Shown: piece after piece, positions 2,562 to 32,908 of the stretch | How positions within the stretch are numbered: position 1 is the stretch's first letter | How the letters are laid out: each line of letters begins with the position of its first letter | NCBI GenBank assembly: GCA_002763225.1 | Contig: PFAI01000028.1 | Span: 1 to 47,021 of the forward strand | From: Candidatus Diapherotrites archaeon CG10_big_fil_rev_8_21_14_0_10_31_34 | GTDB lineage: Archaea > Iainarchaeota > Iainarchaeia > Iainarchaeales > 1-14-0-10-31-34 | Reading direction: 5' to 3' | DNA: 47,021 nt | Made by a program: the position numbers and the translations under genes | The notes under the pieces: model-generated | What the model was told of the DNA's origin: nothing | What the model saw: the letters and a program-made list of their open reading frames with translations, nothing else | Databases searched by the model: none

Positions 2562-3172
2562 TTTTTCGCCATCTTTTTGATGAAACTTTTTCTAAAAGTT
2601 TCTATTTCTTTTAAAGTTGTTTTTCCTTTTCTCACAATCTTTTTTTCTTGAACATCATAAATCGTGCTTGGTTCATTTTCTGCAAGAGTTTTTGCATCAA
2701 AAATAAAGTCAACTTTTTTTCCAAGTATTTTGACTGCTTCTTTAAAAGAATAAATTGGTTTTTTTCCTGAAAGGTTTGCGCTGGTTGAAATTATTGGTTC
2801 GCCTATTGTTTCAACAATTGAGTTTGCAATTTCATTTGAACTAATCCTTAAAGCAATTGTTTTTTCGCTTACTTCTTTTGGAATTAATTCTGTCCCTCTT
2901 GTTTTTTTCGGTACAATCAAAGTTAAATTCCCTTTAAATTCTTCAAGCAGTTTTTCTGCTTCAGGATTTATTTCAGCAAATTTTTGGGCCATTTCTTTTG
3001 AAGAAACAAGAATTACAAATGGTTTTTTTCTGTCTTGTTTTATTTCCCTGATTCTTTTAATTGATTTAATATCACTTATTTTACAGCCTATTCCATAACT
3101 TGTTTCTGTGGGATAAACTATTACCCCGTTTTTTTTCAGCACAAATACTGCTGTTTTTATTCCAACATTCAT
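2558..3172 (-). CDS. sua5: Threonylcarbamoyl-AMP synthase (single-domain Sua5/YrdC)
   Basis: YPTETSYGIG, STSANLSG and PSTI motifs; overlaps the kae1 start. Confidence 0.92.
   Translation of the reverse strand: MNVGIKTAVFVLKKNGVIVYPTETSYGIGCKISDIKSIKRIREIKQDRKKPFVILVSSKEMAQKFAEINPEAEKLLEEFKGNLTLIVPKKTRGTELIPKEVSEKTIALRISSNEIANSIVETIGEPIISTSANLSGKKPIYSFKEAVKILGKKVDFIFDAKTLAENEPSTIYDVQEKKIVRKGKTTLKEIETFRKSFIKKMAKK
2575..2602. repeat. AT-rich palindrome copy inside the sua5 3' end
   Basis: TTTTGAT-GAAACTTTT-TCT-AAAAGTTTC; encodes ETFRKSFIK. Confidence 0.75.
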
Positions 3173-3696
3173 TAAATCACCAGAATCAGGCTGACTGCAT
3201 TAAACGCCATGTGCCCTAAAATTACTGGAATCAAATTATTGGTTTTTTTAAAATAATAAGCTAAAAACAATCCTGCAATAAATGCTCCTATTATCTCAAT
3301 TATCGAACCATACATAAAATGGGCTAACCCAAAAATAATTGAAGAACCAAAAATGCCGATTTTTGTTACTAAAAATCCTCTGAAAAAAATTTCTTCTGCA
3401 AAAACCCTTACAACTAAATAGTATAACATTAGAAAAGGGCTTACTTCAACTATTGTTTTGACTGTTTCATTTACCTTATCTAAATCATTTACTTGAATTA
3501 AACTGCTTGCAATTGATATGGCAAACATTATTGCAATCAATCCGGCTAAAATTTGAATTGAGTTTTTTGTCAGTTCTTTTTTGTCTATTTTTTTGATTCC
3601 CAGTTCTTCAAAAGATTTTTTTATTGAATGATTTTTGAAGTAATAATAAATTAATGGAAAGAGAATCAGAATTAAATCCAGTGAAATTATTTGCAT
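3172..3696 (-). CDS. CPBP (Abi/CAAX) family intramembrane protease
   Basis: AEEIFFRG, FGLAH and HMAFN motifs, multiple TMs; start probably ATG 3696 rather than 3735. Confidence 0.92.
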   Translation of the reverse strand: MQIISLDLILILFPLIYYYFKNHSIKKSFEELGIKKIDKKELTKNSIQILAGLIAIMFAISIASSLIQVNDLDKVNETVKTIVEVSPFLMLYYLVVRVFAEEIFFRGFLVTKIGIFGSSIIFGLAHFMYGSIIEIIGAFIAGLFLAYYFKKTNNLIPVILGHMAFNAVSLILVI

Positions 3697-3707
3697 TATT
3701 TTTTGGA

Positions 3708-3905
3708 TTATTTTTGTTCCCCTTTGTCTTTCCATTCAGTGTAAGAACAGTTTCCACAAGAATACCTGTTTTTGTGTTCAGCTAAAAATACCCCTGAACC
3801 ACATTTAGGGCAGAACTTGCTTTTTCTTTTTAGTTCTCCGCCTTTTACTTCATATTTTTCTGATTTCTTTGAATTTGGGTGTTTTTTTCTAACTTTTTTT
3901 GTCAT
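3708..3905 (-). CDS. rps27ae: 30S ribosomal protein S27ae (eS31)
   Basis: [23 protein letters not shown] zinc ribbon. Confidence 0.97.
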
Positions 3906-3921
3906 TTATTTCACCTTGTTT

Positions 3922-4008
3922 TTTTGATGCAGCTTTTTTCTAAAAAGTTGCTTTTGATTAAACTTTTCCTAAAAGTTTTTTTTGTTAAACCTTTTTTTAA
4001 AAGTTTTT
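3922..4008. repeat. Three tandem copies of the AT-rich palindrome
   Basis: TTTTGAT-GCAGCTTTTT-TCT-AAAAAGTTGC (3922), TTTTGAT-TAAACTTTT-CCT-AAAAGTTT (3952), TTTTGTT-AAACCTTTT-TTT-AAAAGTTT (about 3980). Confidence 0.85.
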
Positions 4009-4009
4009 T

Positions 4010-4148
4010 GCAGTGCTATCGCAGACCCGCTTTCGTGCGGGTGTAACGGTGCACCACTTTCAGTGGTGCTAGCCCCGTGCAAAGCACGGTGCCTCGTACT
4101 CAACTGCTGAAACAGTTGTTTTGATTAAACTTTTTTTAAAAGTTTACT
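4010..4148. repeat. GC-rich multi-hairpin REP/BIME-like element, copy A
   Basis: 4025-4148 matches 10665-10788 at 123/124 nt; four GC hairpins followed by the AT palindrome. Confidence 0.9.
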
Positions 4149-4152
4149 CACC

Positions 4153-4515
4153 TTACTTTTTTTTCTTTTTACTTTCAAGTTTCTTTTTTTCTTTTGCTGC
4201 TTTTTTTGATTCTTTTGTTTTTTTTATTCTTTCTTTGTCTCCAGCAAAATTTCTTCCCAGAACATAATCTAATTCAACTTCTTTCATTTTTTCTTTGTCT
4301 TTGTATGTTCTTGCTTTTCCTGTGCAATACTTTTCTCCAAAATTTTGCTTTATTTCTGTTATTACTGTTGAATCAGAGTTTGATTCAGTTAAAGCTGAAA
4401 TTTTTTCTTTTAAGTCTGTTATTTTTGGTGTTGAATTAATTTCTGTTACTTTAAAGTCTATTTCTTCTCTTGAAAGTAATGGATTGCTTTTTTTGTTGGT
4501 TATTTCTACTTTCAT
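4153..4515 (-). CDS. rps24e: 30S ribosomal protein S24e
   Basis: NPLLSREEIDF...IKQNFG...GKARTY; conserved position after spt4. Confidence 0.93.
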   Translation of the reverse strand: MKVEITNKKSNPLLSREEIDFKVTEINSTPKITDLKEKISALTESNSDSTVITEIKQNFGEKYCTGKARTYKDKEKMKEVELDYVLGRNFAGDKERIKKTKESKKAAKEKKKLESKKKKK

Positions 4516-4536
4516 TGTGATTCCTCCGGTTTCTTT

Positions 4537-4731
4537 TTATCTGCTTAATCTTAATGCGTGTTTTCCTGTGGTTGTAATTCCCATTTTTTTTGCTATCTCT
4601 GATTTTTCCGGGTCAGTTATTACTACATAGCCTCTCCAGAAAGTAGTAAAGCTGTTGCTTCCACAGTTAGGACATTTGTCTCCTTCTTCTATTACCCTTC
4701 TGCATTCTCTGCATGCTTTTCCTTTACTCAT
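4537..4731 (-). CDS. spt4: Transcription elongation factor Spt4 (RpoE'')
   Basis: KACRECRR...CPNCGS...WRGYVVITDPEKSEIAKKMGI. Confidence 0.97.
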   Translation of the reverse strand: MSKGKACRECRRVIEEGDKCPNCGSNSFTTFWRGYVVITDPEKSEIAKKMGITTTGKHALRLSR

Positions 4732-4751
4732 TTATTCTCCAACTCCATTTT

Positions 4752-4779
4752 TTTTGATTAAACTTTTTTTAAAAGTTTA
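4752..4779. repeat. AT palindrome copy supplying the last codons and stop of rpoE1
   Basis: TTTTGAT-TAAACTTTT-TTT-AAAAGTTTA; reads KLLKKV* on the minus strand. Confidence 0.85.
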
Positions 4780-5399
4780 TTTTTCTGGGTTTTTTTTTCA
4801 ATTTCTTTTTTTTCTACTTTTGGTGTGTTTTCTTTTCCTTTCTTTATTTTTTCTTTTCTTTTTAAGTCTATTGCAAGCCATTCCTCTTTTCCTAATCCTG
4901 GCTGTCTCATTGTTAAACCTAATTTTGAATTTGGGATATTCCCTTTTAGACTGCAGGTTACAATTCTTGCTATTACTTGGTCTTCTAAACCCAGTTTTTT
5001 GTTTGTTTCTTTTCCAATAAACCCTGGGCCTTTTGCATCATAATTAATATAATCATTCATTATCTGGCTTACATGAATTAATCCTTCTATTGGTCCTGTT
5101 CTGACAAATGCCCCGAATTCAGTTATTTCTGTTATTGTTCCTTCAACTATTTCTTTTGGTTCTGGTTTGTAAACTAATGCCTTATATTCTGATTCATAGT
5201 AGGCTGATCCGTCCCCTGGAATTACTTTTCCTTCTCCTACTTTGTCTACTTCTAATACGGCAACAATTACTCCGACACTTTCATCTACTATTCCTTCATA
5301 TTCCTCTTTTACTATTTTTAAAATTGATTCTTCCAGTTTTCCTCCAAAGTCTTTTGGCGGGACCCTTACAGTGTCTTTCATTGAAATTATTGCATACAT
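4758..5399 (-). CDS. rpoE1: RNA polymerase subunit E' (Rpo7)
   Basis: VRVPP, GKVIPGDG, FGAFVRTGPIEGLIHVSQI, LGLTMRQPGLGK. Confidence 0.97.
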   Translation of the reverse strand: MYAIISMKDTVRVPPKDFGGKLEESILKIVKEEYEGIVDESVGVIVAVLEVDKVGEGKVIPGDGSAYYESEYKALVYKPEPKEIVEGTITEITEFGAFVRTGPIEGLIHVSQIMNDYINYDAKGPGFIGKETNKKLGLEDQVIARIVTCSLKGNIPNSKLGLTMRQPGLGKEEWLAIDLKRKEKIKKGKENTPKVEKKEIEKKTQKNKLLKKV

Positions 5400-5415
5400 T
5401 TTGTTTCCTCCTTAT

Positions 5416-5796
5416 TTATTCAACAACAATAACCTTTTTTTGTCTTACGAATGCGGTTTTAAAACCTTTCTTTTTTATTGCTCTTCTTAACTCTTTATCA
5501 TTGGTTGCTATAATAAAACCTTGTTCTGCTAATTCCTTCATTTTTTTATCTGCTTCCTGGTTTTCTCCTTTAATTATTTTGCATTTTTTTTTAATCATTA
5601 TTTCTGCTATTAAAACATTTTTTGCTTTTGTTTTGTTTTCTTTTTTTAGTTTTTCCATTTCATGTAATACTTCTGTTGGAACAAAAAATTCTGTTTTTCC
5701 CAAAAATTTTTCTATTTCCTCAAAAACATCTAGTTTTAGTTCTCCTATTGCTAAAAGCATGTTTGTATCTAACACTACTTTATTGAATTTCTCCAT
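5416..5796 (-). CDS. PIN-domain protein (Fcf1/Utp24-like)
   Basis: VVLDTNML, VPTEVLHE, AD, IATNDKELR; conserved position between aIF2g and rpoE1. Confidence 0.92.
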   Translation of the reverse strand: MEKFNKVVLDTNMLLAIGELKLDVFEEIEKFLGKTEFFVPTEVLHEMEKLKKENKTKAKNVLIAEIMIKKKCKIIKGENQEADKKMKELAEQGFIIATNDKELRRAIKKKGFKTAFVRQKKVIVVE

Positions 5797-6985
5797 AAGC
5801 AATTAATCTCCATCTTGTTGCATCTTTTATGCTTACTGCAATTCTTTGTCCTTTGTCTACTGAAATTGGAACTTTAAGCGTAACGTCAATTAAATCTTTT
5901 TTTAGTGAAACAATGGTTCCAATTGTTGTTGCTGTTCCGGCACTTAATACAATTATTTCTCCTTGTTTTACTTCGTTTTTTTTGTCTGTTATTTCTCTTT
6001 TAAAGTAATTTAATTTCATTTTTATTTCTGAAACAGGATCTGAAACTGTTCCTATTTTTCCCAGTACATTTCCTTTCATTTGATCGTTTTTTGTTAAATT
6101 TGGATCAATTAAAGTTTTAACTGAAATTAATCCGCCTGGAACTGCTTTTTTTATGGTTCCTCCGGCAGTGCTTAATTCAACTACTTTTATTTTTGTTTTT
6201 TTATTGTTTATTCCAGGGCTTAACTCCAGTTCATCTCCTTCTTCTATTTTTCCCTGAAGTATTGTTCCGCCTAAAACCCCTCCAACTATTTCTTTTGGTT
6301 TTGCGCCTGGTTTGTTAATGTCAAAACTTCTTGCAATAAACATTTTTACTGGTTTTTTTTCATCTACTTTTGGGGAAGGAATATTTTTTTCTATTGCTTC
6401 AATCAATAAATCCATGTTTGTTCCGAAATGTGCGGCAGTTGGAATTATTTCAACTTTTTCGTATTCAAATTCTTTCAGGAAATTTTTTATTTGCTTGTAA
6501 TTTTCTTCTGCTTTTTTTTTGTCAACTAAATCTATTTTGTTTTGTGCTACAACAATGTTTTTTATTCCGCTGATTTTTAATGCCATTAAATGTTCTTTTG
6601 TTCTTGGTTGAGGGCAGAATTCATTTGCGGCTATTACTAGTATTGCTCCATGCATTAATGCTGCTCCTGAAAGCATTGTAGTCATTAGGGTTTCGTGTCC
6701 TGGCGCATCAACAAAACTTACTTTTCTTAATTTTTTTCCTTTTTTTTCGCAGTTAGGGCACTTTTCTTTTGTAGAAAAAGCTTCTGCTCCTTTGCAGTCA
6801 GGACACTTATAAAATACTGTGTCTGCATAACCTAATCTGATTGAAATTCCTCTTTTTAGTTCTTCTGAATGAGTGTCAGTCCATTTTCCGCTTAATGCCT
6901 GGGTTATGGAAGTTTTTCCATGGTCAACATGGCCTATTAAGCCAATGTTAACTTCTGCTTGTTCTGCTTCTTTTTTCATTTTCAT
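5780..6985 (-). CDS. eif2g: Translation initiation factor aIF2 gamma
   Basis: GHVDHGKT, EELKRGISIRLGY, zinc knuckle, DAPGHETLM, NKID. Confidence 0.98.
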   Translation of the reverse strand: MKMKKEAEQAEVNIGLIGHVDHGKTSITQALSGKWTDTHSEELKRGISIRLGYADTVFYKCPDCKGAEAFSTKEKCPNCEKKGKKLRKVSFVDAPGHETLMTTMLSGAALMHGAILVIAANEFCPQPRTKEHLMALKISGIKNIVVAQNKIDLVDKKKAEENYKQIKNFLKEFEYEKVEIIPTAAHFGTNMDLLIEAIEKNIPSPKVDEKKPVKMFIARSFDINKPGAKPKEIVGGVLGGTILQGKIEEGDELELSPGINNKKTKIKVVELSTAGGTIKKAVPGGLISVKTLIDPNLTKNDQMKGNVLGKIGTVSDPVSEIKMKLNYFKREITDKKNEVKQGEIIVLSAGTATTIGTIVSLKKDLIDVTLKVPISVDKGQRIAVSIKDATRWRLIAYGEIQ

Positions 6986-6998
6986 CTTCTCGTTTTTT

Positions 6999-7046
6999 GC
7001 AGTACGGGCTTGTCCCGTACCTCGTATTCAACTGCCGAAACAGTTG
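6999..7046. repeat. Short variant of the GC-rich hairpin element (copy C)
   Basis: GCA-GTACGGG-CTTGT-CCCGTAC-CTCGTATT-CAACTG-CCGAAA-CAGTTG; shares the CCTCGTAYTCAACTGCYGAAACAGTTG module with copies A and B. Confidence 0.85.
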
Positions 7047-7544
7047 TTAAGCTTTCTTAATTTTTCCTTTTGCTGTTTTTGCATCTCCTGCCAGTTCCAC
7101 ATTACCTACATTTTCCAGTGAATCTTTAACCAGTTTTTCTTTTGCGCTAATTTTTTCTTCTTTTTTGTCTTCTGTGATTTCTTTCCCAAATATTTCTTCT
7201 AGTTTTTTTGTTCCTTGTTTTGTTATAACCAAATTAACTTGTTCTGTTTCTTCACTAATAGTGTTTCCTCTTACACTGACTCTTTTTCTTTCTCCTTTTC
7301 GTTTTGGATGAAAGCCAATGCCACCTTTAATGAAAATTTTTTTTCTTGCGATTCCAGGAATATCTGTTCTCATTGGAAATCCTTGTTTGTCGCTGCCTCC
7401 GCTGATTTTTGCTTCATATCCTTCTAATCCAATGGAATCCAGTTTTACTTGTTCTCCTATTTTTTTGTTTAATAATAATGCTGTTGTTTCAACTTTTTTT
7501 CCAAAAGCTTTTCTGGTTTTTGGATCACTTAATACTATGTTCAT
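7047..7544 (-). CDS. rps6e: 30S ribosomal protein S6e (with C-terminal extension)
   Basis: IVLSDP, GGSDKQGFPMR, GERKRVSVRGN. Confidence 0.97.
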   Translation of the reverse strand: MNIVLSDPKTRKAFGKKVETTALLLNKKIGEQVKLDSIGLEGYEAKISGGSDKQGFPMRTDIPGIARKKIFIKGGIGFHPKRKGERKRVSVRGNTISEETEQVNLVITKQGTKKLEEIFGKEITEDKKEEKISAKEKLVKDSLENVGNVELAGDAKTAKGKIKKA

Positions 7545-9289
7545 TTAGCTTCCTCCTGTAATTTAACTTCTTTTATTTTTTTAAGTAATTCTTTTTCTTC
7601 TTCATTTAATATTCCTTGGCTGTTTTCCAGTTTTTCCATGTCTTTTTCTGAAATAAAACTAATTAATTCATCATTGTTTTCTATTCCTCTTCCTAGTACG
7701 GCATCGCTTATTGAGATTGCTACTTCTTCTCCTTTTGATGCGTTTTTTATTGTTTCTCCGTTGTTTTGTATTCCCTGAACTTTTCCGACTATTTTTCCAT
7801 TTTTCATTAATTTTGTTCCTGTTTTTAATTTTCCTTCCAGTATTTTTGCTCCGATTATTACTGGTTTAGCATTTCTGAAAACATTTTCCGGCATTAATTT
7901 TATTTTTACCGGAAACACTACTTCAGCTAAAAAATCTTTTTTTGCTTTTTCTTTTTCTTCAATAACCCATTTCTCGTATTTTTCAATTAAATTATAAATT
8001 ATTTTTTCATTGAATATTTTTATTTCATTTTTTTTTGCTTCTTCTATTGCTTCTGGATTAATTTTTGTGTTAAAAGCCAGAATTACTCCTTGAATTTTGT
8101 CTTTTTCTTTTACTCCTTCTGCTTCAATTACATCTCTTCTTGTTATTTCGCCTACATTTGCTTTTCTTACTTTGATTCCTTTTTCTTGTAATAATTTTAT
8201 TGTTGCTTCTAATGACCCTAATGTGTCTGTTTTGATTATTACTCCGTTTTCTTCTGAATCAATTTTTATTGACTGAATTTCTTTTTTGATTTCTTCTATT
8301 TCTTCTTTTGTTGCTTTAACTATTAAAGGTGAGCCGGCTAATGCATTTTCTAATCCTGGTGCAGCAATCTTTAATCCTGATGCAGCATGAACTTCTTTAA
8401 CTGAATCAAATCTTTCTTGCGGTGCACTAATTTCATCTAATGGTTTTGGCAGCAGTAATGCCCTGATTTTTGTTTCAATTATTCCTTGTTTTCCTGCTAA
8501 AACAATTTGGTCTCCTGTTCTGATTGTTCCGTCATACAAAATTACATCAATTGTTTTTCCCAAGCCTTTTTCTTCTTTTACTTCTAATATTGTTCCTTTT
8601 CCTCTTCCTTTTACTTCAATGTTTAATTTTTTTTCTAAATATTTTTGGCTTAATCCTGCTAAAAACATCAGTACTTCAGGAAAGCCTTCTCCTGTTTTAT
8701 TGCAGATTGGGATTATTGGAATTTCTTTTGTGAAATTCTGTATTCTGTCAAATCTTTCAGTTAAAAAACCTTTTTTGTGGGCTTCTCCTACAATGCAGTA
8801 AAGTTTTTTGTCTAATTCTTCCAGCAATTCTTTGCTTTGGTTTTCTTTGTTTTCGGTAAAACTTAATTTTTTTGAATCCCATCCCTGCATTTTGTCTATT
8901 TTAGTCATTGCAATGATGAAAGGAACTTTAAATGCCTTTAAAATATCCAAAGATTCCAGTGTTTGTTTTTCGCATCCTTTAATGCAGTCAACTGTTAATA
9001 CTGCCAAGTCTGCAATGCTTCCCCCTCTTTTTCTTAAATTAGAGAATGCTTCGTGCCCTGGGGTGTCAATAAATAATAATCCCGGAATCTTTAATTCAAA
9101 CCCGTATTTTTTTGTTAGTTCTCCGGCCAAATTTTTTACTATTTCAATTGGAACTTCTGTTGCACCAATATGCTGTGTTATTGCTCCTGCTTCCTGTGAA
9201 ACAATTTTTGTGCCTCTAATCATGTCTAAAAAACTTGTTTTTCCTGAGTCGACATGACCTAATACAGTTATTATTGGCTTTCTAATCAT
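7541..9289 (-). CDS. infB: Translation initiation factor aIF5B (IF-2)
   Basis: LGHVDSGKT, EAGAITQHIGATE, DTPGHEAF, DTLGSLEA. Confidence 0.98.
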   Translation of the reverse strand: MIRKPIITVLGHVDSGKTSFLDMIRGTKIVSQEAGAITQHIGATEVPIEIVKNLAGELTKKYGFELKIPGLLFIDTPGHEAFSNLRKRGGSIADLAVLTVDCIKGCEKQTLESLDILKAFKVPFIIAMTKIDKMQGWDSKKLSFTENKENQSKELLEELDKKLYCIVGEAHKKGFLTERFDRIQNFTKEIPIIPICNKTGEGFPEVLMFLAGLSQKYLEKKLNIEVKGRGKGTILEVKEEKGLGKTIDVILYDGTIRTGDQIVLAGKQGIIETKIRALLLPKPLDEISAPQERFDSVKEVHAASGLKIAAPGLENALAGSPLIVKATKEEIEEIKKEIQSIKIDSEENGVIIKTDTLGSLEATIKLLQEKGIKVRKANVGEITRRDVIEAEGVKEKDKIQGVILAFNTKINPEAIEEAKKNEIKIFNEKIIYNLIEKYEKWVIEEKEKAKKDFLAEVVFPVKIKLMPENVFRNAKPVIIGAKILEGKLKTGTKLMKNGKIVGKVQGIQNNGETIKNASKGEEVAISISDAVLGRGIENNDELISFISEKDMEKLENSQGILNEEEKELLKKIKEVKLQEEAK

Positions 9290-9719: not shown

Positions 9720-9846
9720 TTAATTCCCTTTTTCTTTTTTTTGATTTTAATTTCTTTTTTTATGGTTTTTTTCAATTCTTTAATTTTTTTTTCTTCAATT
9801 TTTTTAACTTATTCTTTTTAATTTATTTTTTTTGTTTTTCTTTTTT

Positions 9847-10410: not shown

Positions 10411-10429
10411 TTAATCACCTATTTTTCTT

Positions 10430-10455
10430 TTTTGATTACTTTTTTTAAAAGTTTA
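10430..10455. repeat. Degenerate AT palindrome copy (rpl24e-ndk spacer)
   Basis: TTTTGATTACTTTTTTTAAAAGTTTA. Confidence 0.7.
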
Positions 10456-10461
10456 TCGCAT

Positions 10462-10650: not shown

Positions 10651-10664
10651 TTTTTCTCACCCCA

Positions 10665-10788
10665 ACCCGCTTTCGTGCGGGTGTAACGGTGCACCACTTT
10701 CAGTGGTGCTAGCCCCATGCAAAGCACGGTGCCTCGTACTCAACTGCTGAAACAGTTGTTTTGATTAAACTTTTTTTAAAAGTTTACT
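10665..10788. repeat. GC-rich multi-hairpin REP/BIME-like element, copy B
   Basis: Identical to 4025-4148 except A10717 versus G4077. Confidence 0.9.
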
Positions 10789-10996: not shown

Positions 10997-11000
10997 TTAT

Positions 11001-11369: not shown

Positions 11370-11378
11370 TTAAAATCA

Positions 11379-11418: not shown

Positions 11419-11488
11419 AAAATGAGACTTATTAAAACGTGTGAAAAAAGCTTTTTAAAGGTATTTTAGAGGGATAATTTGAGGTTTT

Positions 11489-13183: not shown

Positions 13184-13236
13184 GATTTATTCCTTCAATT
13201 ACTAAATCTGAATAAAATTAGTTTTAATTTTATGCT

Positions 13237-17190: not shown

Positions 17191-17910
17191 TCACCTCTTT
17201 GAGCTCTGCTTCTTTTTTCTTGCTTTTGTTCCCAATGGTTTTTTTGGTTCAACTCTTCTGTGGTCATCAACCATCAATAATCTATCATATTTAATGTATT
17301 TTTCTTTTAGTTTTTTGTCGTTAGTGTATTCAACTATTGCTTTTGCTATTGCGCTTCTTGCTGTTACTGCTTGGCCCATAAAGCCTCCGCCTTTTACATT
17401 GATTTTAATGTCTGTTTCTTTTATTAAATCTCCGGCCAGTTTTATTGGCTCTAAAATCATTTCTTTAACATAATATGGCTGAACAAATTCGATTTTTCTT
17501 TTGTTTAAAGTTATTTTTCCTGTTCCTGTTTTGATTACTGCTCTTCCAATAGCTCTTTTTTTCTTTGATTTAATCATCATTCCATATTTTTTGCTTCTTT
17601 TTGCCTTTTTTTTCTTTTTTTTTGATGGTTCTGTTTCTTCGTCTTCTGTTGCTTTTTCTTTCATTTCCTCAAATTCTTTTTTTATTTCTTCTTTTTTCTT
17701 TTCCTCTTTTTTTTCAACTGGTTTTTCTTTTATTTCTTTTTTATTTTCAGCAGGAATTTCTTTTTTAAGTTCTTTTGTTTTTTCTTGTGTTTCTTTTTTT
17801 TGGGCTTCTTCTTTTTCTTTTTTAACTGGTTCTTTTTTTGTTTCTTCTATTTTTTCATTTGTTTTTGATGAAACTTTTTCTAAAATTTTCTTTTGTTCTG
17901 TTTCAGTCAT
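17191..17910 (-). CDS. rps9: 30S ribosomal protein S9 with ~110-aa Lys/Glu-rich N-terminal extension
   Basis: [28 protein letters not shown]...KQSSKR. Confidence 0.96.
17863..17890. repeat. AT palindrome copy inside the rps9 5' end
   Basis: TTTTGAT-GAAACTTTT-TCT-AAAATTTTC; encodes KILEKVSSK. Confidence 0.7.
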
Positions 17911-18736: not shown

Positions 18737-18816
18737 TTTTGATTAAACTTTTTTCTAAAAGTTTTTAGCAGTGTTATTGAAAATAGCACGCTCTCTTCGC
18801 GCGAGCAGGCGCGAAG
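18737..18816. repeat. AT palindrome plus GCAGT-led hairpin module downstream of tRNA-Leu (variant D)
   Basis: TTTTGATTAAACTTTTTTCTAAAAGTTT, then GCA-GTGTTATT-GAA-AATAGCAC and CTTCGCGC-GAGCAG-GCGCGAAG. Confidence 0.7.
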
Positions 18817-18817
18817 A

Positions 18818-18979
18818 TGCAGGAGGAGAGATTCGAACTCTCGAAGGCACTAAGCCACAGGATCGCTTAAAACATTAAAATAATGTTTTTGCCCAAGCAA
18901 ACTTTTTTGATACAACTTTTTTTCTAAAAAGGTTGTGTTTTCTTAAGTCCTGCCCCGTTGACCGCTTGGGTACCCCTGC
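18818..18979 (-). tRNA. tRNA-Leu(TAA) with a 78-nt intron at 37/38 (18864-18941)
   Basis: GCAGGGG acceptor pairing with CTCCTGC-A, CAGGA-CT-TAA-G^intron^A-TCCTG anticodon arm, long variable arm, GAGAG-TTCGAAT-CTCTC T arm, perfect bulge-helix-bulge; no encoded CCA. Confidence 0.96.
18905..18936. repeat. AT palindrome copy inside the tRNA-Leu intron
   Basis: TTTTGAT-ACAACTTTTT-TTCT-AAAAAGGTTGT. Confidence 0.8.
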
Positions 18980-18985
18980 ATTATA

Positions 18986-24559: not shown

Positions 24560-24568
24560 TTTTACACC

Positions 24569-25030: not shown

Positions 25031-25036
25031 TTTTTA

Positions 25037-26295: not shown

Positions 26296-26732
26296 TTTTT
26301 ATCACCTTTTACTGCTGCTTCAACATATTTTTTTCCTTTAAAGTAGTTTCCTTTAATTCTTCTGTAAATTTTTCCGTATTCTCCTTTTTCCATTTTAACT
26401 TCTTTTTTTAATTCTTTAATTTTTTTTCTTTGGGCTCTGACTGTTTTAATCCAGCTTTTTTTCTTTCTTGTTCTTGTTTTTATTGTTCCTTTTCTTTTTC
26501 CCTGCCCTCTTTTTCTTCCTTTCTTTTTCTTTTCTTTTAACTTTCTTGCTCTTCCTTTACTTTGATAAGCATCTTTTCTTTTTTTGACTATTCCATCTTT
26601 GATTAACTGCCTTACATCTTCTTTTGTCATGCTTTCAGCTATTCTTTCTCTTTCTTTTTCTGAGAAAACAATTTTGCTTTTTCCGATGTTTAGTATTTCT
26701 GCTGCCATTCTTCTTATTTTGTTTAATTGCAT
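26292..26732 (-). CDS. rpl19e: 50S ribosomal protein L19e
   Basis: RRMAAEIL, TKEDVRQLIKDG, SKGRAR, GKRKG, WIKTVRAQR. Confidence 0.97.
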   Translation of the reverse strand: MQLNKIRRMAAEILNIGKSKIVFSEKERERIAESMTKEDVRQLIKDGIVKKRKDAYQSKGRARKLKEKKKKGRKRGQGKRKGTIKTRTRKKKSWIKTVRAQRKKIKELKKEVKMEKGEYGKIYRRIKGNYFKGKKYVEAAVKGDKK

Positions 26733-26742
26733 TTTAATACAC

Positions 26743-27393
26743 CTAATTTAATATCCTTAAATTCATTTCTTTTGCAGTTTTAAGTATTTCTTTTTTTGAT
26801 TTTTTTCCGATTGTCCTTTTCAGTCTTATAACAATGTTTTTTTCTTTTATTTTTTTTAGTTCGTTTAAATTGTTTACATATACTTCTCTTAATCCTGATG
26901 GATGCAATCCTCTTATTTCTTTTGTTGTTCTATAACCCATTTTTGGTCTTGCCCCATTGTCTTTTTTCAAATAAAAGTCAATTCCTCTTGCTTTGCTCCA
27001 TTTAGCCCATTTTTTGATTGCTTTTCTTCTTAACCATGATTTTCCGAAGTTTCCTCTTATTATTGGAACTTTTTTTTGCTTTATTTTTTCCTGTAATTTT
27101 TTTTGTTCTTCTGTTTTTTTGATTTTGTTTACTGCTTTTGGTTTCTTTTTTTCTTTTGGTTGTTGAACCTGAACTTTCTTTTTTTCAGTTTTAATATCTT
27201 TTTTTGAAACTTCGTTTCCCTCTTTTTTTTCTTCTTTTGTTTTCTTTTTCTTTTCTTCAGCTTTTTTGTCTTCTTTAGGTGTTTCTTTTTTATCTTCAAT
27301 TTTGAGTAATTCAGCTTTTTCATCAATTTTTTCTTTAGTAATTTCTTTTTTTGTTGCTTCTTCTTTTTTATTGTCTTTATTTTCTTCTGCCAT
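26743..27393 (-). CDS. rpl32e: 50S ribosomal protein L32e with ~100-aa charged N-terminal extension
   Basis: WSKARGID, PKMGYR, RGLHPSG, LRILN. Confidence 0.94.
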   Translation of the reverse strand: MAEENKDNKKEEATKKEITKEKIDEKAELLKIEDKKETPKEDKKAEEKKKKTKEEKKEGNEVSKKDIKTEKKKVQVQQPKEKKKPKAVNKIKKTEEQKKLQEKIKQKKVPIIRGNFGKSWLRRKAIKKWAKWSKARGIDFYLKKDNGARPKMGYRTTKEIRGLHPSGLREVYVNNLNELKKIKEKNIVIRLKRTIGKKSKKEILKTAKEMNLRILN

Positions 27394-27929
27394 TACTCAT
27401 TCACCTTTTTTTCTGTTAAGTATATTCCGTCCTGGAAAACTCTTGGGTCTCTGTTTTTGATTTTTGTTGCTTTTTCCAGGTTTGCAGCTGTTTGGCCTAT
27501 TTCTTCTTTGTTTATTCCTGTTAAAGTGATTTCTTTTCCTTTTATTTCAACTTTTGTTTGACCGATTATTTTTGATTTTCTTGGTTTTTTTTCTCCAACA
27601 AAATTATTTATTTCCACAGTGTTTCCTTTTACTGTGACATTTATTGGAAAATGTGAAAATACAACACGCATTTTGTAAGTATATCCTTTGTTTGTTCCTT
27701 CAACCATATTTTTTATGTGTGCTTCAACTGTGTTAATTGTTACTTTGGCTCTTTTTGATCCTGCATGAGAAGAAACTGTTATTTTGTTTTCTTTTAATTC
27801 AATTTTCACTTTTGTGTGAGTTAAATCTCTTTCAATAACCCCTAATTTTCCAGTAATCTTTACGTTTGCTCCTGTAACTTCTGCTTTTGTTCCTTCTGGA
27901 ATTTCAATTGTTTTTGGTTGTGCTTTCAT
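27393..27929 (-). CDS. rpl6: 50S ribosomal protein L6
   Basis: IPEG, HIKNMVEG, SHFPI, NFVGEK, GQTAANLE, DPRVFQDGIY. Confidence 0.97.
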   Translation of the reverse strand: MKAQPKTIEIPEGTKAEVTGANVKITGKLGVIERDLTHTKVKIELKENKITVSSHAGSKRAKVTINTVEAHIKNMVEGTNKGYTYKMRVVFSHFPINVTVKGNTVEINNFVGEKKPRKSKIIGQTKVEIKGKEITLTGINKEEIGQTAANLEKATKIKNRDPRVFQDGIYLTEKKVNE

Positions 27930-27939
27930 TTTTATCACT

Positions 27940-27966
27940 TAAACTTTTCAGAAAAATTTAATCAAA
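27940..27966. repeat. AT palindrome copy in the opposite orientation (rps8-rpl6 spacer)
   Basis: Reverse complement reads TTTGAT-TAAATTTTT-CTG-AAAAGTTTA. Confidence 0.7.
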
Positions 27967-27969
27967 TCC

Positions 27970-28362
27970 TTAATATACAAAGGCGATTAATCTTCCTCCA
28001 ACATCTTTGCTTTTTGCTTCTTTGTGGGTCATTACCCCTTTTGAAGTTGAAACTATTAATATCCCGATTTCTTTTGAAGGTAAAAATCTTTTTTCGTATT
28101 TTTCAAATTCGTGTTTCTTTACAGCATATCTTGGTTTTATTGCTTTGCATTCATTGATTTTTCCTTTTAATTCTACTTTAAACATTCCGTCTCTTCCGTC
28201 ATCAATTAATTCATATTTTTCGATAAATCCTTTTTTCATCAAAATTTTGAGTATTTCAGTGATTAATTTTGATGCAGGCTTAAATGTGCATTCTTTTTTT
28301 GATGCCATTTCATAATTTTTCAAGTTTATTAATGCATCTGCTACTGGATCTGTTAAACTCAT
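27970..28362 (-). CDS. rps8: 30S ribosomal protein S8
   Basis: DPVADAL, KPASKL, DDGRDG, IKPR, STSKGVMTH. Confidence 0.97.
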   Translation of the reverse strand: MSLTDPVADALINLKNYEMASKKECTFKPASKLITEILKILMKKGFIEKYELIDDGRDGMFKVELKGKINECKAIKPRYAVKKHEFEKYEKRFLPSKEIGILIVSTSKGVMTHKEAKSKDVGGRLIAFVY

Positions 28363-28376
28363 GTTTTTATTCACCT

Positions 28377-28511
28377 TTAATTATATTTATTAAATCCTAT
28401 TTTTGTTGCTCTTTCTTTGAAGCATCTTCTGCAAATTTGCATTCCGTATTTTCTGATTACTCCTCTCCTGCTTTTGCATACTGTGCAGTTCACTTCTTTT
28501 TTGTTAATCAT
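28377..28511 (-). CDS. rps14: 30S ribosomal protein S14 (zinc type; absent from the ORF track)
   Basis: Manual translation [44 protein letters not shown]. Confidence 0.95.
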
Positions 28512-29017
28512 TTTATTTCAACTCCAAATTCTTTTTTCACAAAGTTTATTGCTTCGTCTTTTGTTACTCTGTGTTTTATTGGAACTTTTTTTGAATTGTT
28601 TTTTCTTCTTTTAATTCTATAACCTTTTTTTTCCAAGCTCACTAAAACATTAAATCCTTTTATTCCAAGTGCTGGGTCATATTTTACTCCCGGCAAGTCA
28701 ATGTATTCTTTTATTCCAAATCCGAAGTTTCCTGTTTTGTCAAAGTTCTTGTTTAATAAAATATTTTCTTTTGCTTTAAATGCAGTTTTTAAGAATTCTT
28801 TTGCTTTTTCTTTTCTTAGTGTTACTTTTACTCCGATTGGCAGCCCTGGTCTAATCCCCCATGTCGGTTGTTTTACTTTGCTTTTTGTTTGGACTGCTTT
28901 GCTTCCAGTTATTTTTTCCAGTATCTTTTGTCCTTTTTTTAGTTCGTCTCCGGCTTCTCCGACACCCATGTTTAATACAACTTTTTCTATTTTGACTTCT
29001 TTCATTGGGTTTTCCAT
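28508..29017 (-). CDS. rpl5: 50S ribosomal protein L5
   Basis: [42 protein letters not shown]. Confidence 0.98.
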
Positions 29018-29026
29018 TTTTTACAC

Positions 29027-29740
29027 CTATAATTCTATTTCTGATTTTTTTTCTCCGATAACAAATACATTTGTTTCAGTGGTTTTGAATTCTTTTTCTT
29101 TTGTTTTTAGTTTAACTGTTTTAACTCTGTTTATTGTTCCCTGAAGTATTTCTTCTATTTGTGCTTGTGTTCCTGTGTGGCTTCCCCCTGTAATATAAAC
29201 AAAATTTCCTTTTTTTTCTGGAATTTTTTCCAGTATTTTTTGGTCTGGCAAAGAAATTTTAATTGAGTCTCCTATTTTTAGTTCTGTTTCTTTTTCAATA
29301 AAAGTTCTTCCATCATTTGTATTTAATTGAATCTCTTTTTTTCCATTGACTTTTTTCCCGGTTATTTTGCATAATTTTACCGGCTTTTTTTCTTCTGTAT
29401 TTATTGTTTTAAGCCTTCCTTTCGAATCTAATACTATTCGATAATTTTCTTTTATGTCTTCGATTGAAATCAAATCAAATAAACCTATTGGAAATTTTAA
29501 TTCTTTTCTTATTTTTCCGTCTACTTTTACTTTTCCTGCGTTTAATATTTTTTTTACTTCTTTTTTGTTGGTTGCAATCTTTAAAATATCTCTGATTAAA
29601 AATCCTAATGGGATTGACTGAGTAAAATTATGAGGGCCTGACTTTAATTTTATTGTAAAAGTGTTTTCTTTTCTGTCCATTTTTCTTACTTTGTTTGTTG
29701 ACAGTCTTTTCTGCTTTTTTTTGCTTCCTTTTTTTGCCAT
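29027..29740 (-). CDS. rps4e: 30S ribosomal protein S4e
   Basis: GPH...IPL, VKVDGKIR, FPIGLFD, KLCKI, GGSHTG. Confidence 0.96.
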   Translation of the reverse strand: MAKKGSKKKQKRLSTNKVRKMDRKENTFTIKLKSGPHNFTQSIPLGFLIRDILKIATNKKEVKKILNAGKVKVDGKIRKELKFPIGLFDLISIEDIKENYRIVLDSKGRLKTINTEEKKPVKLCKITGKKVNGKKEIQLNTNDGRTFIEKETELKIGDSIKISLPDQKILEKIPEKKGNFVYITGGSHTGTQAQIEEILQGTINRVKTVKLKTKEKEFKTTETNVFVIGEKKSEIEL

Positions 29741-30235
29741 TTACTTTCCCTCTTTTATAGTTTCTTCTTCTGTTTTTTTTTCAACAGGTTTTTCTTCAAC
29801 TTTCTTTGTTTCTTTTTGAACTTCTTCTTTGTTTATTTCTTTTTTCTTTCCAGTAACTTTTGCTTCTTCTTTTTTTGATGTTGGTTTTTTTGCCCTTTTT
29901 AATCTTTTATCATCTTTTGTTTCTAATTCAATTAACATTAAATTGCTTGCCTTAAACGGAATTAATTTTTCTGTTCCGTCTGCTTTTTTTCTTGTCATTT
30001 TGTCAATAAACACTTTTGCTTTTTTGTGGTGTACTTTTACTATTCTTCCTTCTTTTTTCTTGTGGCTTCCTCTCATAATTTTTACTTTATCATCTTTTCT
30101 TACCATTAAACTTCTTTTTCCTGTTTCTTTTCTTAACTCTTTACTTAAGTTTGCAGTTAAAACAATTTTTCTTTCATGAAGTTTTCCTTTGTATAATCTT
30201 TTTCTTTGTTTTGATGGTTTTTTTGTTTTATTCAT
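29741..30235 (-). CDS. rpl24: 50S ribosomal protein L24 (with charged tail)
   Basis: PSKQRK, LSKELR, VRKDDKVKIMRG, ASNL. Confidence 0.96.
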   Translation of the reverse strand: MNKTKKPSKQRKRLYKGKLHERKIVLTANLSKELRKETGKRSLMVRKDDKVKIMRGSHKKKEGRIVKVHHKKAKVFIDKMTRKKADGTEKLIPFKASNLMLIELETKDDKRLKRAKKPTSKKEEAKVTGKKKEINKEEVQKETKKVEEKPVEKKTEEETIKEGK

Positions 30236-30244
30236 GTTTACACC

Positions 30245-30643
30245 TTAAACTATTCCTTGTGCTATTCCTGCCACTTTAGGCCATCTTTCTCCGACTTCTT
30301 TTGCTACTACTCCTTTGATTTCTGATGCTTTTGGTAATCCTTTATCATCAACTAATACTACTGCATTGTCTTCAAATTTTATTCTTGTTCCGTCTCTTCT
30401 TCTGTATTCTTTTTTTACTCTGATTACTACTGCTCTTTCAACTTTTTTCCTTATTTCTGGTTTTCCTTTTTTTACCACTACATTAACCATGTCTGCTATT
30501 CCAGCTTTTTGTGCCATTTTTTTTCTTGATTTAAAATGAAATACAGTAATTATTTCAACTATTTTTGCTCCACTGTTGTCTGCACAAATACATCTTGTTT
30601 TTTGTGTTAATCCTTTTGTGGCGTTTGCATTAATCGCTTTCAT
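30245..30643 (-). CDS. rpl14: 50S ribosomal protein L14
   Basis: CADNSGAK, KKGKP, RRDG...FEDNAVV. Confidence 0.98.
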   Translation of the reverse strand: MKAINANATKGLTQKTRCICADNSGAKIVEIITVFHFKSRKKMAQKAGIADMVNVVVKKGKPEIRKKVERAVVIRVKKEYRRRDGTRIKFEDNAVVLVDDKGLPKASEIKGVVAKEVGERWPKVAGIAQGIV

Positions 30644-30929
30644 TTGATTCTACCTCTAATACAACAAAACTTTTTGTTTTGCTTATTCTTCTTGTTTCCC
30701 CTATTTTAACTTTATTGCCTTCTTGTGCGTTAATGCATTTAGGGTTATGTGCTGTAATCTTTGATCTTATTTTTTTGTATCTTTCATATTTTGGTATTTT
30801 TTTTGTCAGTATTCTTTCAATGGTTATTGTTTTGTTTCCTTTATCGCTGATTACTTTTCCTGTGAAAACATTTCCTCTTACTTTTATGTTCCCGTGTTTT
30901 GGGCAGTTTTTATCTTTGCATTCAGTCAT
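30630..30929 (-). CDS. rps17: 30S ribosomal protein S17
   Basis: CKDKNCPKHG, KYERY, AHNP, ETRRISKTKSF. Confidence 0.97.
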   Translation of the reverse strand: MTECKDKNCPKHGNIKVRGNVFTGKVISDKGNKTITIERILTKKIPKYERYKKIRSKITAHNPKCINAQEGNKVKIGETRRISKTKSFVVLEVESNESD

Positions 30930-31221
30930 TTTTTTTCCTCCAAAACATCTTGATTCTGTCTTCTGGTTTCATCAAAATTTTTTCTCCGTTTATTTTTGTT
31001 TTTTTCCCTTTTAATTCAAATTCTATTTCTGCTTCTTTTTTTGGAATCTTTTTTTCTCCTTTTTTTGTTTCTATTATCAGCAAATTTTTTGTTTCTTTTA
31101 TTATTTTCCCTGAAATTTTTTTTGTTTTATCATTGCTTTTTGTTATTTTCACTTTTAATCCATTTATTTCATGCATTGCAACATTTTCTTGTGTAATTGC
31201 ATATTTTTTTTCAAACATCAA
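30922..31221 (-). CDS. rnp1: Ribonuclease P protein component 1 (Rpp29)
   Basis: HEINGLKV, GKIIKETKN, IPK, PEDR; canonical position. Confidence 0.93.
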   Translation of the reverse strand: MMFEKKYAITQENVAMHEINGLKVKITKSNDKTKKISGKIIKETKNLLIIETKKGEKKIPKKEAEIEFELKGKKTKINGEKILMKPEDRIKMFWRKKND

Positions 31222-31513
31222 TTAATTCCTCTTTATACCCTTGTTCCAGTAATGCTTTTTTGATGTGTTTTTTATGGTCTCCTTGAAGTTCTATTGTATT
31301 TTCTTTTACTGTTCCTCCGCACGCAAACTTTTTTTTCAGGATTTTTTCAAGGTTTTTTGCTGCTTCATGGCTTTCTAATCCCTGCATTATTGTTATCCAT
31401 TTCCTGAATTTAATTTTTTTTACAAATATTTTGATTTTTTGGCTTTCTTTTGCGATTTCCTGGCAAACGCAGAGGTTTTTAGGAAGCCCACATGTTTGAC
31501 ATACTTCATTCAT
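31211..31513 (-). CDS. Translation initiation factor SUI1 / aIF1
   Basis: CGLPKNLCVCQEIAKE, KKKFACGGTVK, IELQGDH. Confidence 0.96.
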   Translation of the reverse strand: MNEVCQTCGLPKNLCVCQEIAKESQKIKIFVKKIKFRKWITIMQGLESHEAAKNLEKILKKKFACGGTVKENTIELQGDHKKHIKKALLEQGYKEELIDV

Positions 31514-32022
31514 TTTTTTTCATTTCCTCCTTTTTTTCCCTTTTTCTTTTTTGATAAAACTTTTCTCAAAATTTTCTTTTGCTTTTTTTTGCTGATTGTT
31601 CTTCCTTTTTTCTTTATGCTTTTCTTTTTGGCTTTATTTTTTTTCTTTCTTGTTCTTTTTTTTGTTTTCTTCTTTTTTGATGAAACTTTTTTCAAAAGTT
31701 TCTTTTTAATTGAAATTTTGTCTTTTTTTTCGTCTTTTGTTTTTTGTTCAACCTTTCGTTTTGATAAATCTTTTTCTAAAAGATTTAAAGGTTGTTTTGT
31801 TTCTTCTGGTTTTTCCTTGCCTGCAAGTTTCTTTTCGTTTATTATTGTTAAAGTTCTTGCAATATCTCTTCTGATTTTTTTTATTTTTCCTGGATTTTCT
31901 GCTCTTGTTCCTGAACTGATTTGTGCTTTTTCTTTTGCTAAATCCCCTTTCATTGAAATAACTTTATCTTCCAGTTCTGTTATTGGGAGTTCTCTTATTT
32001 CTTGAATTTTTTTCTTTGTCAT
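31510..32022 (-). CDS. rpl29: 50S ribosomal protein L29 with ~105-aa very basic C-terminal tail
   Basis: EIREL...ENPGKIKKIRRDIARTLT core followed by a Lys-rich tail. Confidence 0.93.
   Translation of the reverse strand: MTKKKIQEIRELPITELEDKVISMKGDLAKEKAQISSGTRAENPGKIKKIRRDIARTLTIINEKKLAGKEKPEETKQPLNLLEKDLSKRKVEQKTKDEKKDKISIKKKLLKKVSSKKKKTKKRTRKKKNKAKKKSIKKKGRTISKKKQKKILRKVLSKKKKGKKGGNEKK
31549..31787. repeat. Three AT palindrome copies in the L29 tail (31549-31575, 31675-31702, 31759-31787)
   Basis: Encode KILRKVLSK, KLLKKVSSK and NLLEKDLSK; the last is a perfect TAAATCTTTT/AAAAGATTTA stem. Confidence 0.8.
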
Positions 32023-32029
32023 TTAATCA

Positions 32030-32908
32030 TCACTTTTCTTTCTTTTCTTTTGATACAACTTTTTCTAAAAGTTGTTTTTCGTCTTTTTTTGTTTCTTTGC
32101 TTTTTTCTTCATCTTTTTTTTCTTTTTTGTATTCTTTTGCTTCTTCTTTTCCTTCGTCTTTCTTTTTGTGTCCTTTTTTTTCTTTTTTATCGTCTTTATC
32201 TTTTTTCTTGTGTTCTTTTTTGTTTTCTTCTTTTTCTTCGGTTTTCTCTTTTTTCTCTTCTATTCTGGTTTCTTTTTTAGTTTCTTCTTTTGGTTTTTCT
32301 TTTCTGCTTTCAATTAATTCTTTAATATCAATTTTGTCTGGGAAAACTGTGCCTGGTTTAACTATTCTTATTTTTACTCCTATTGTCCCAAATTTTGCTT
32401 TTGCAGGTGCAGCCCCGTAATCAACCATTTTTGCTTGTTCTCCGATTTTTTTCATATATCCTTCTGCTACTCTTTGTTTTCTTTTTCTTACTCCTTTTCC
32501 GCCTAGTGCTCCTGACAAAACTATTTCTACTCCTTGTGCTCCTGCTCCGGTAATATCTTTTACTGTTCTATACACTACACTTCTCCAGCTAAAACCTCTT
32601 CCAATTAAACTTGAGATTTTGTCTGCCATTGCCTGTGCATCTAATTCAGGGACAGTAATTTCTTTTATTTCTATTTGAGGGTTTTCTATCCCGAATTTTT
32701 CTTCTAATATTTTTGTCAGTTTTTTGATGTTTGTTCCGCCTTTTCCTATTGCTAGTCCTGGTCTAGTTACATTTAATACAATTCTTGTTACCAGAGGGGT
32801 TTTGACTGTTTCAAGTTTGGTAAAACCTGCTTTATCTAATTCTTTTTTTAAGTAATTTTCCATTTCAATTTTTTTTATTCCTTGTTTGATGAATATTCTT
32901 TCAATCAT
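32030..32908 (-). CDS. rps3: 30S ribosomal protein S3 with charged C-terminal extension
   Basis: RPGLAIGKGG, PELDAQ, AGAQGVEI, GYMKK, GTIGVKI. Confidence 0.97.
   Translation of the reverse strand: MIERIFIKQGIKKIEMENYLKKELDKAGFTKLETVKTPLVTRIVLNVTRPGLAIGKGGTNIKKLTKILEEKFGIENPQIEIKEITVPELDAQAMADKISSLIGRGFSWRSVVYRTVKDITGAGAQGVEIVLSGALGGKGVRKRKQRVAEGYMKKIGEQAKMVDYGAAPAKAKFGTIGVKIRIVKPGTVFPDKIDIKELIESRKEKPKEETKKETRIEEKKEKTEEKEENKKEHKKKDKDDKKEKKGHKKKDEGKEEAKEYKKEKKDEEKSKETKKDEKQLLEKVVSKEKKEK
32048..32075. repeat. AT palindrome copy in the rps3 3' end
   Basis: TTTTGAT-ACAACTTTT-TCT-AAAAGTTGT; encodes QLLEKVVSK. Confidence 0.8.

Follow-up and report, generated by a model that had tools for sequence, protein, structure and literature searches.

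A dispersed, tagged-hairpin repeat in operon spacers, tRNA introns and ribosomal-protein tails of a Diapherotrites archaeon

What is the short palindrome that recurs beside the pentanucleotide TTGAT throughout the operons of Candidatus Diapherotrites archaeon CG10_big_fil_rev_8_21_14_0_10_31_34? The question was raised by contig PFAI01000028.1 of assembly GCA_002763225.1, a stretch of 47,021 nt that we call the window (contig C60 of a 1.04-Mb assembly with 65 contigs, 31% G+C and 81% completeness), in which an earlier note had listed 16 such sites and proposed either a minimal element spread by an HUH enzyme or a structural signal. The window carries archaeal genes as judged by Pfam, including those for S24e, S6e, L7Ae, eIF2-gamma, Rpb7 and Spt4 and a ribosomal-protein superoperon, nearly all of them on the − strand. 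We refer to the genome carrying the window as G000 and to two congeners compared in synteny as G005 (G5) and G003 (G3). On balance, we lean towards reading the 16 sites as copies of a small non-autonomous tagged-hairpin repeat, similar to repetitive extragenic palindromes (REP), that is moved by a factor other than a resident Y1/HUH transposase.

Inspection of every listed site found the motif at all 16. A unit measures 28–30 nt and, read on the gene strand, forms a hairpin with a stem of 9 bp and a loop of 3 nt, after which comes the tag A[T/A]CAAAA; five inner pairs of the stem are fixed (CTTTT/AAAAG), and the four or five outer ones are variable yet complementary. As the note had described, the tag stands at one foot of the hairpin only, and 15 of the 16 copies share an orientation, which is the sense strand of the genes. 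TTGAT abuts the hairpin in every copy and may be part of the unit itself. The repeat greatly exceeds chance expectation: the exact 14-mer TTGATNAAACTTTT occurs nine times in the window, always on the + strand, against 0.06 ± 0.24 times in 100 dinucleotide shuffles, and with up to two mismatches there are 34 matches against 21.0 ± 4.4, a count reached in none of the 100 shuffles. An iterated weight matrix returned 236 sites at ≥20 bits, compared with 3–6 in three order-3 Markov simulations; this matrix drifted to A-rich low complexity, and later counts were taken from the seed matrix and structural criteria. A strict structural search retrieved 14 of the 16 window copies, missing those at 10430 (truncated 3′ arm) and 27940 (imperfect and reversed).

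The claimed covariation of the stems is also borne out. Across the 16 window copies, the covariation score is 0.180 against 0.071 ± 0.022 in shuffles, with 0 of 500 shuffles reaching the observed value, paired cells amount to 87.3% (79.9 ± 1.8 in shuffles), and two-sided changes occur in ten cells where 4.0 are expected. Among 98 distinct copies genome-wide, the outermost pair is Watson-Crick in 75 (34.1 expected) and takes all four forms (A-T 40, T-A 17, G-C 11, C-G 7), and the three positions beyond the stem pair at chance level, so that covariation ends at the stem boundary. The RNA hairpins predicted for four perfect copies have energies of −6.8 to −7.1 kcal/mol (z −3.0 to −4.1), and the opposite strand is predicted to fold almost equally well. 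Applying a high-confidence definition (arm of at least 9, at most one mismatch, TTTT core and CAAAA tag) to the whole genome, we identified about 127 units, of which 89 have perfect stems and 38 a single mismatch. A structure-aware recount of the mismatches gave six of G-T type and seven of A-C type; an apparent set of 19 T-G pairs proved to be register shifts in 10-bp stems and not wobble pairing. Because the mismatches show no G-T excess, neither strand is marked as the one that folds. Rfam covariance models gave no match at gathering score anywhere in the window, and we found no description of the element in the literature searched, which covered articles without their supplementary files. 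We conclude that the observation is real and that the window holds an abundant, structured repeat.

Within the window, several copies occupy operon spacers. Three tandem units at 3922, 3952 and 3980 (3922..4007, − strand) immediately precede the Shine-Dalgarno site and start of S27ae, and a 124-nt chain of five small hairpins (4025..4148, − strand), absent in G5 and G3, follows the S24e stop and starts with the unit at 4119-4146. A second 124-nt chain (10665..10788, − strand), with its unit at 10759-10786, lies in an unrelated spacer between S28e and L24e and is 99.2% identical to the first; G5 has a diverged chain at S28e-L24e only, so the chain at S24e-S27ae looks like the recent copy. The distal hairpins of the chain (window 4025-4090) form a multi-copy family of their own, found on contigs C13, C16, C25, C45, C58 and C64 of G000 and mostly directly downstream of tRNA genes. 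The unit with the truncated 3′ arm (10430..10455, − strand) lies between L24e and NDK, and the sole reversed copy (27940..27967, + strand), which is imperfect, lies between the S8 stop and the L6 start as an insertion of ~30 nt relative to G3.

Other copies reside in a tRNA intron and in protein termini, both as the note had reported, and beside that tRNA gene. The unit at 18905-18936 stands at the start of the 78-nt intron of tRNA-Leu(UAA) (18816..18980, − strand), a gene recognized by ARAGORN as tRNA-Leu(taa) at complement 18816-18980 when introns are allowed; neither ARAGORN at default settings nor Rfam at gathering score reported any tRNA. Another unit occupies the trailer of this tRNA (18737..18764, − strand), upstream of L18e, where the units of G5 and G3 differ in number and stems. 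Six to seven copies lie in the C termini of Sua5, Rpb7, S3 and L29 (three copies) and the N terminus of S9. The Sua5 copy (2575..2602, − strand), a perfect 9-bp hairpin followed by ATCAAAA, lies in the last codons of the gene, 13 nt before the Kae1/TsaD start, and the copy at 4752..4779 (− strand), upstream of Spt4, gives the last residues and TAA stop of Rpb7 (rpoE); both are absent in G5 and G3. In S9, the unit forms codons 8-17 (17863..17890, − strand) of a Lys/Glu-rich N-terminal extension, three units at 31549, 31675 and 31759 (31549..31787, − strand) lie in an L29 C-terminal extension of ~100 residues, and the unit in the Lys/Glu-rich C-terminal tail of S3 (32048..32075, − strand) reads in frame as ..QLLEKVVSK.. 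opposite a 7-residue gap in the G5 alignment. The genes for S9 (17191-17910), L32e (26743-27393), L29 (31510-32022) and S3 (32030-32908) all have Lys/Glu-rich extensions of ~100 residues, which fall outside the Pfam domains and vary in length and sequence among congeners.

Genome-wide, the 127 high-confidence units comprise 88 intergenic copies, 10 in predicted tRNA introns (eight sense, two antisense) and 29 in coding sequence (28 sense and one antisense, the latter looking like a chance match); the seed weight matrix similarly gave 100 sites at ≥18 bits, with 66 intergenic, 34 sense in genes and none antisense. Unit density is alike across co-directional spacers (53 units in 55 kb, 34 sense and 19 antisense), divergent spacers (20 in 30 kb) and convergent spacers (8 in 14 kb), and is ~30-fold lower in coding DNA (29 in ~936 kb). 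The ribosomal-protein window is about three times denser (14-16 in 47 kb) than the genome (127 in 1045 kb). Head-to-tail chains with a period of ~28 nt per unit are common, intermixed with other small hairpins, some of which are closed by UUCG- or GNRA-type loops. Among them, the 28 gene-borne sense copies use every one of the three reading frames (14, 10 and 4) and yield unrelated peptides such as ..KLLEKVSSK.., ..QTFEKSLNK.. and ..QTFSKKFDQK..; because three frames are used and the peptides differ, conservation is at the level of DNA and not of peptide. With introns disallowed, ARAGORN reported 24 tRNAs in G000; with introns permitted it reported 38, of which 14 have introns 21-155 nt long, and some of those predictions are probably inexact. 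A 322-aa Fic/DOC-family gene (locus L028, G000:C47:10001-13800, at ~2340-3520) has on each side a copy, in direct orientation, of a tRNA 3′ end joined to a unit and a second hairpin, an arrangement resembling a small insertion at a tRNA gene.

Many copies in the window precede a start codon by 10-40 nt, and their A/T-rich centre resembles a TATA box, as it would if the palindrome were the archaeal BRE (B recognition element)/TATA promoter of the downstream gene. The data speak so clearly otherwise that we give this reading next to no credence. Counts of TATA-like words across 463 upstream regions have a sharp maximum at −30 to −26 relative to the start codon (55 against at most 22 in any other bin), and the 3′ half of the unit never exceeds four per bin; distances from units to start codons are broadly distributed without a peak. 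Units are also found between convergent genes, immediately beyond tRNA 3′ ends and in the interval from a stop codon to a T-run resembling a terminator, and the same genes in G3 and G5 do without them. The position of the TATA-like peak, −30 from the start codon, implies that first genes are mostly leaderless; internal operon genes carry GGTGA-type ribosome-binding sites.

Comparison with congeners shows that the units come and go. Contigs G005:C3 and G003:C36 are syntenic with the window at 72-86% DNA identity, about 80% on the whole; the units were compared over ~50 kb of this synteny, at 75-85% identity. Presence or absence among close relatives had been set beforehand as the test of mobility, and it does differ: G5 and G3 lack units at most window sites. 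The S24e-S27ae spacer measures 247 nt in the window, 52 in G5 and 12 in G3; the corresponding lengths are 136, 105 (the diverged chain) and 11 for S28e-L24e, and 51, 4 and 11 for L24e-NDK. A structural scan of the syntenic stretches found 14 units in the window, five in G5 (three plausible, all at tRNA-Leu) and 13 in G3, mostly elsewhere. Only the tRNA-Leu locus and the first L29 unit are common to species, the latter shared with G3 (the L29 extension is absent in G5), and the units in Rpb7, S8-L6, the S3 tail and the second and third L29 positions are restricted to the window. Conversely, three insertions of ~40 nt are confined to G3 and have clean empty sites in the window and G5, so that between the window and G3 empty sites are clean in both directions. 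At Sua5-Kae1, G5 and G3 carry ~590 nt with an opposite-strand open reading frame (ORF); in the window (2558-2610) that stretch is missing, and a unit sits precisely where its flanks meet.

Four groundwater DNA runs gave neither presence nor absence variants, because contigs break at the units, with repeat-to-repeat joints; the few pieces bridging units were identical to the window. Public unitigs from the window's own organism likewise break at units. In the family relative G008, many units lie less than 150 nt from contig ends (for example at loci L002, L004, L006 and L007), and this clustering indicates that the repeat breaks assembly.

The note's second suggestion was an RNA/DNA structural signal. 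In its fuller form, a conserved archaeal factor would read the unit as a functional signal, for example as a hairpin that stabilizes transcripts or insulates their folding, or as a site bound by protein, and units would come and go with changing needs for expression. The tRNA-Leu intron copy suits this idea, since it holds the same position in three species with the stems ACAAC/GTTGT, AAAAC/GTTTT and GAAAC/GTTTC, followed by hairpins whose number differs between species; so do the conservation of core and tag in distant archaeal lineages, the sense bias (28:1 in genes, 8:2 in tRNA introns, 34:19 in co-directional spacers) and the density of the ribosomal-protein window. Set against this, the unit is dispensable, being missing from most orthologous congener sites in operons that are otherwise intact. 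It keeps no preferred distance from start codons, is equally frequent in divergent, convergent and co-directional spacers, shows no G-U excess on the sense strand and has only a weak preference for downstream T-runs (a run of T6 or more within 100 nt downstream of 38 of 98 copies and upstream of 24 of 98), and the bias in genes is explicable by which peptides are tolerated. We therefore regard a signal function as rather improbable.

The unit is not confined to this genome. We searched with a strict pattern that specifies 17 bases and leaves four outer stem positions unspecified, and found it in each of the eight other family genomes, at 5-39 copies; elsewhere in the order its occurrence is patchy (11 of 32 genomes sampled from other families), and the reversed pattern, run as a control, had no match in any of the 41 genomes searched. 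A collection of species-representative genomes yielded at least 120 loci and at least 123 matches. Among the 123 matches listed, 79 have all four outer pairs (74 archaeal and five bacterial record labels), 12 have three (seven archaeal, five bacterial) and 32 have two or fewer (two archaeal, 30 bacterial), and the complementarity of the four unspecified positions thus separates real units from chance matches. Archaeal labels among the matches listed include Methanosarcinales, Methanophagales, Methanobrevibacter, Methanocaldococcus, Methanocellales and Thermoplasmatales, together with Altiarchaeota, Micrarchaeota, Woesearchaeota, Aenigmatarchaeota and Iainarchaeum; one strict match, at locus L078, falls in the record of Methanobrevibacter curvatus DSM 11111, a cultured carrier. 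ARAGORN placed the unit inside an intron-bearing tRNA in seven of 248 short loci among the matches listed, all seven archaeal. At loci L063, L102, L103, L106, L115 and L116 (labelled Methanosarcinales or Methanobacteriota), the unit and a second conserved segment together form a tandem array with a repeat length of ~62 nt. In a viral collection, 61 of the 156 matches listed have four of four outer pairs and 53 have three of four, with clusters of up to five per locus; a distinct subfamily with GTTAC/ATTAC stems among these matches lies partly on contigs labelled, by label only, as giant-virus bins.

Which enzyme might move such a unit? The model of the earlier note was a minimal IS200/IS605- or REP-like element whose hairpin and adjacent TTGAT are read by a Y1 (HUH) transposase and copied through single-stranded DNA, with the enzyme's gene lying where the genome is unassembled, or with a virus or plasmid providing the enzyme in trans. 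The geometry fits, in that a short conserved tag adjoins a perfect palindrome at one foot, and we found no target-site duplication; to our knowledge, the IS200/IS605 family makes none. Y1 genes exist in the lineage (PF01797 matches in three of eight other family genomes and nine of 41 genomes of the order sample), the unit also occurs on viral-collection contigs, and at 81% completeness the absence of Y1 from this genome is not proven. Nonetheless, the link to an HUH enzyme finds no support in our searches. Y1_Tnp (PF01797) has no match in this incomplete genome or in G001, G002, G003, G005 and G007, which are 90-96% complete (G003 91%, G005 96%), and copy number does not track Y1: G003 has 39 strict copies and G007 has 20, both without a Y1 match, and G006 has seven copies and five Y1 genes. 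The note had suggested searching for Y1 genes flanked by the motif; at the three loci inspected in relatives, the genes are ordinary insertion-sequence genes without flanking units, one with a TnpB-like neighbour. Two viral records searched hold no Y1 gene, and the arrays run head to tail and not as inverted doublets. Genes lying between unit pairs, including those flanked by inverted units, encode an ABC-2 permease, Fic, UbiA, a zinc ribbon and L44e; no nuclease or transposase is among them. On this evidence, a Y1-driven element is unlikely. Among other enzyme families, TnpB and reverse transcriptases had no match in this genome; Y2 families had none either, nor did they match any control genome. 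Two DDE_Tnp_1 genes, on contigs C27 and C36, were set aside, their gene ends being unrelated to the unit.

The hairpins might instead have formed in place by replication template switching, that is, by fold-back copying of neighbouring sequence without transposition. According to excerpts of PMC8794818, this process can create and repair perfect stems, in keeping with the 89 perfect stems among 127 units and with mismatches that show no wobble bias. At the Sua5 tail, the 3′ arm is sequence present in both relatives, to which the window adds ~10 bases that are its reverse complement, and in two reversed insertions (window 27940 and G3 25510) one arm coincides with local Shine-Dalgarno-region sequence that is then present twice. 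Template switching leaves unexplained, however, the fixed inner stem and tag in more than 100 copies and in distant lineages, and the copying of a 124-nt chain to a second locus. Permutation tests of arm-flank repeats were weak or negative (50, 11, 16 and 77 of 300 permutations reached the observed means), the weak signal being driven by neighbouring decayed units, and the low-complexity flanks make alignments fragile. We give this origin little credence. A Shine-Dalgarno region stands on both sides of four recent operon insertions (the S24e-S27ae chain of the window and the three G3 insertions); this doubling and the arm matches would weakly fit microhomology-guided copying or template switching, and the same cases could equally reflect selection keeping a ribosome-binding site, or chance in low-complexity DNA.

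We return to the favoured reading, a REP-like passenger repeat moved by a factor other than a resident Y1/HUH transposase. On this view, a factor acting in trans would recognize the fixed inner stem together with the tag and copy the unit as DNA, with fast gain and loss of units between species. Units would persist where transcribed DNA tolerates extra sequence, namely in operon spacers, in the introns and trailers of tRNAs, and in low-complexity Lys/Glu tails of ribosomal proteins, where they would be translated in any frame that stays open; after insertion, units would just be co-transcribed as modestly stable predicted hairpins.

Several results weigh against this reading. Family searches of the genome and of the genes between units turned up no mobilizing enzyme. 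Target-site duplication is not evident, the mean flank match of 65 solitary copies being 8.79 against 8.55 ± 0.24, a value reached by 40 of 300 permutations. The compensatory changes in the tRNA-Leu intron copy look like selection on structure, and the retention of core and tag across archaeal phyla could equally mean a function. Among 275 loosely defined copies, three at most are identical, and this diversity excludes a recent burst from a single master copy. A loose structural search gave 515 matches against 256 in a reversed-genome control, a high false-positive rate that led us to base counts on the stricter set of 127.

A wider proposal, which we offer tentatively and hold to be possible but doubtful, is that the tagged hairpin is a pan-archaeal mobile element, also on virus-like contigs, moved by a non-Y1 enzyme that reads hairpin and tag, and that it is a chief contributor to the long tRNA introns found in small archaea and has also supplied new residues to ribosomal proteins. 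If a mobile repeat of this kind is confirmed, the REP elements of bacteria have an archaeal counterpart, one with three unusual habits: it fills tRNA introns, occupies the gap from a stop codon to the following ribosome-binding site in essential operons, and is translated within ribosomal proteins. It would provide a concrete, datable source for the growth and spread of archaeal tRNA introns and for the Lys/Glu-rich extensions of DPANN ribosomal proteins. Because core and tag do not change between methanogens and DPANN, a factor reading them should exist and be findable, and because some carriers are cultured methanogens, bench testing is possible. For annotation, the units explain spurious long ORFs, tRNA genes missed at default settings and contig breaks in these metagenome-assembled genomes.

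Some further features of the window and genome deserve mention. A second perfect-palindrome family in G000 has 11-13-bp T/C-rich stems with GGCAGA on one side and TGTAAGTTG on the other, lacks the CAAAA tag, and occurs at C15:25625, C39:12556, C3:1486, C51:15328, C64:17505 and C53:9782. In the window, the 983-aa tRNA-splicing ligase RtcB (39635-42586, − strand) contains an intein (Pfam Intein_splicing) at residues 104-600, with Archease (42579-43016, − strand) directly upstream and overlapping it by 8 nt. Two large ORFs of 434 and 528 aa (36718-38022 and 37923-39509, both − strand) overlap by 100 nt and have no Pfam match.

How does the unit compare with known systems? Yeast mitochondrial GC clusters and the double-hairpin elements of Allomyces are small mobile hairpins of organelle genomes. 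Like them, the unit is tiny and gene-less and occupies the spacers, introns and occasionally coding sequence of compact A/T-rich genomes; the sequences and hosts differ, and we know of no shared tag. Rickettsia palindromic elements (RPE) are bacterial repeats of ~100-150 bp, confined to one lineage, that lie in frame in protein genes and in RNA genes and add residues without destroying function. The unit shares with RPE a palindromic repeat in both kinds of gene without a known transposase, but is only 28-30 nt long and is found across archaea. TTGAT is the target of ISDra2, a member of the IS200/IS605 family, and the ends and miniature derivatives of that family likewise place a hairpin beside a TTGAT-type pentanucleotide, with no target duplication detected. 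Unlike those elements, the unit has one symmetric hairpin instead of distinct left and right ends, this incomplete genome has no TnpA or TnpB match, and no link ties the unit to the Y1 genes inspected in relatives.

Inverted repeats made by template switching, as treated in excerpts of PMC8794818 and PMC8604942, resemble the unit in their perfect stems, multi-base compensatory changes and arms that sometimes match neighbouring sequence. The common core and tag, fixed over more than 100 copies and many lineages, set the unit apart; the process as outlined in those excerpts predicts neither. A further comparison is with bacterial REP, BIME and REPIN elements, which are moved by RAYT (Y1 HUH) transposases and are treated in excerpts of PMC3733652 and PMC12306157. 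Both are short palindromes (20-40 nt in the bacterial case) with a conserved tag at one foot and complementary variable stems, present in hundreds of often clustered copies in operon spacers and 3′ regions. The tag differs (TTGAT/ATCAAAA here, GTAG or CGTC in REP), no RAYT gene matched PF01797 in this 81% complete genome, units do not flank the Y1 genes inspected in relatives, and arrays run head to tail where REPINs have inverted doublets as the mobile unit. Also unlike REP, 29 of 127 copies are coding, some in frame, 10 lie in tRNA introns, and the host is an archaeon. Because the unit behaves as a passenger element but fails the RAYT test, we file it as a REP-type variant whose mover would be other than the one found for REP.

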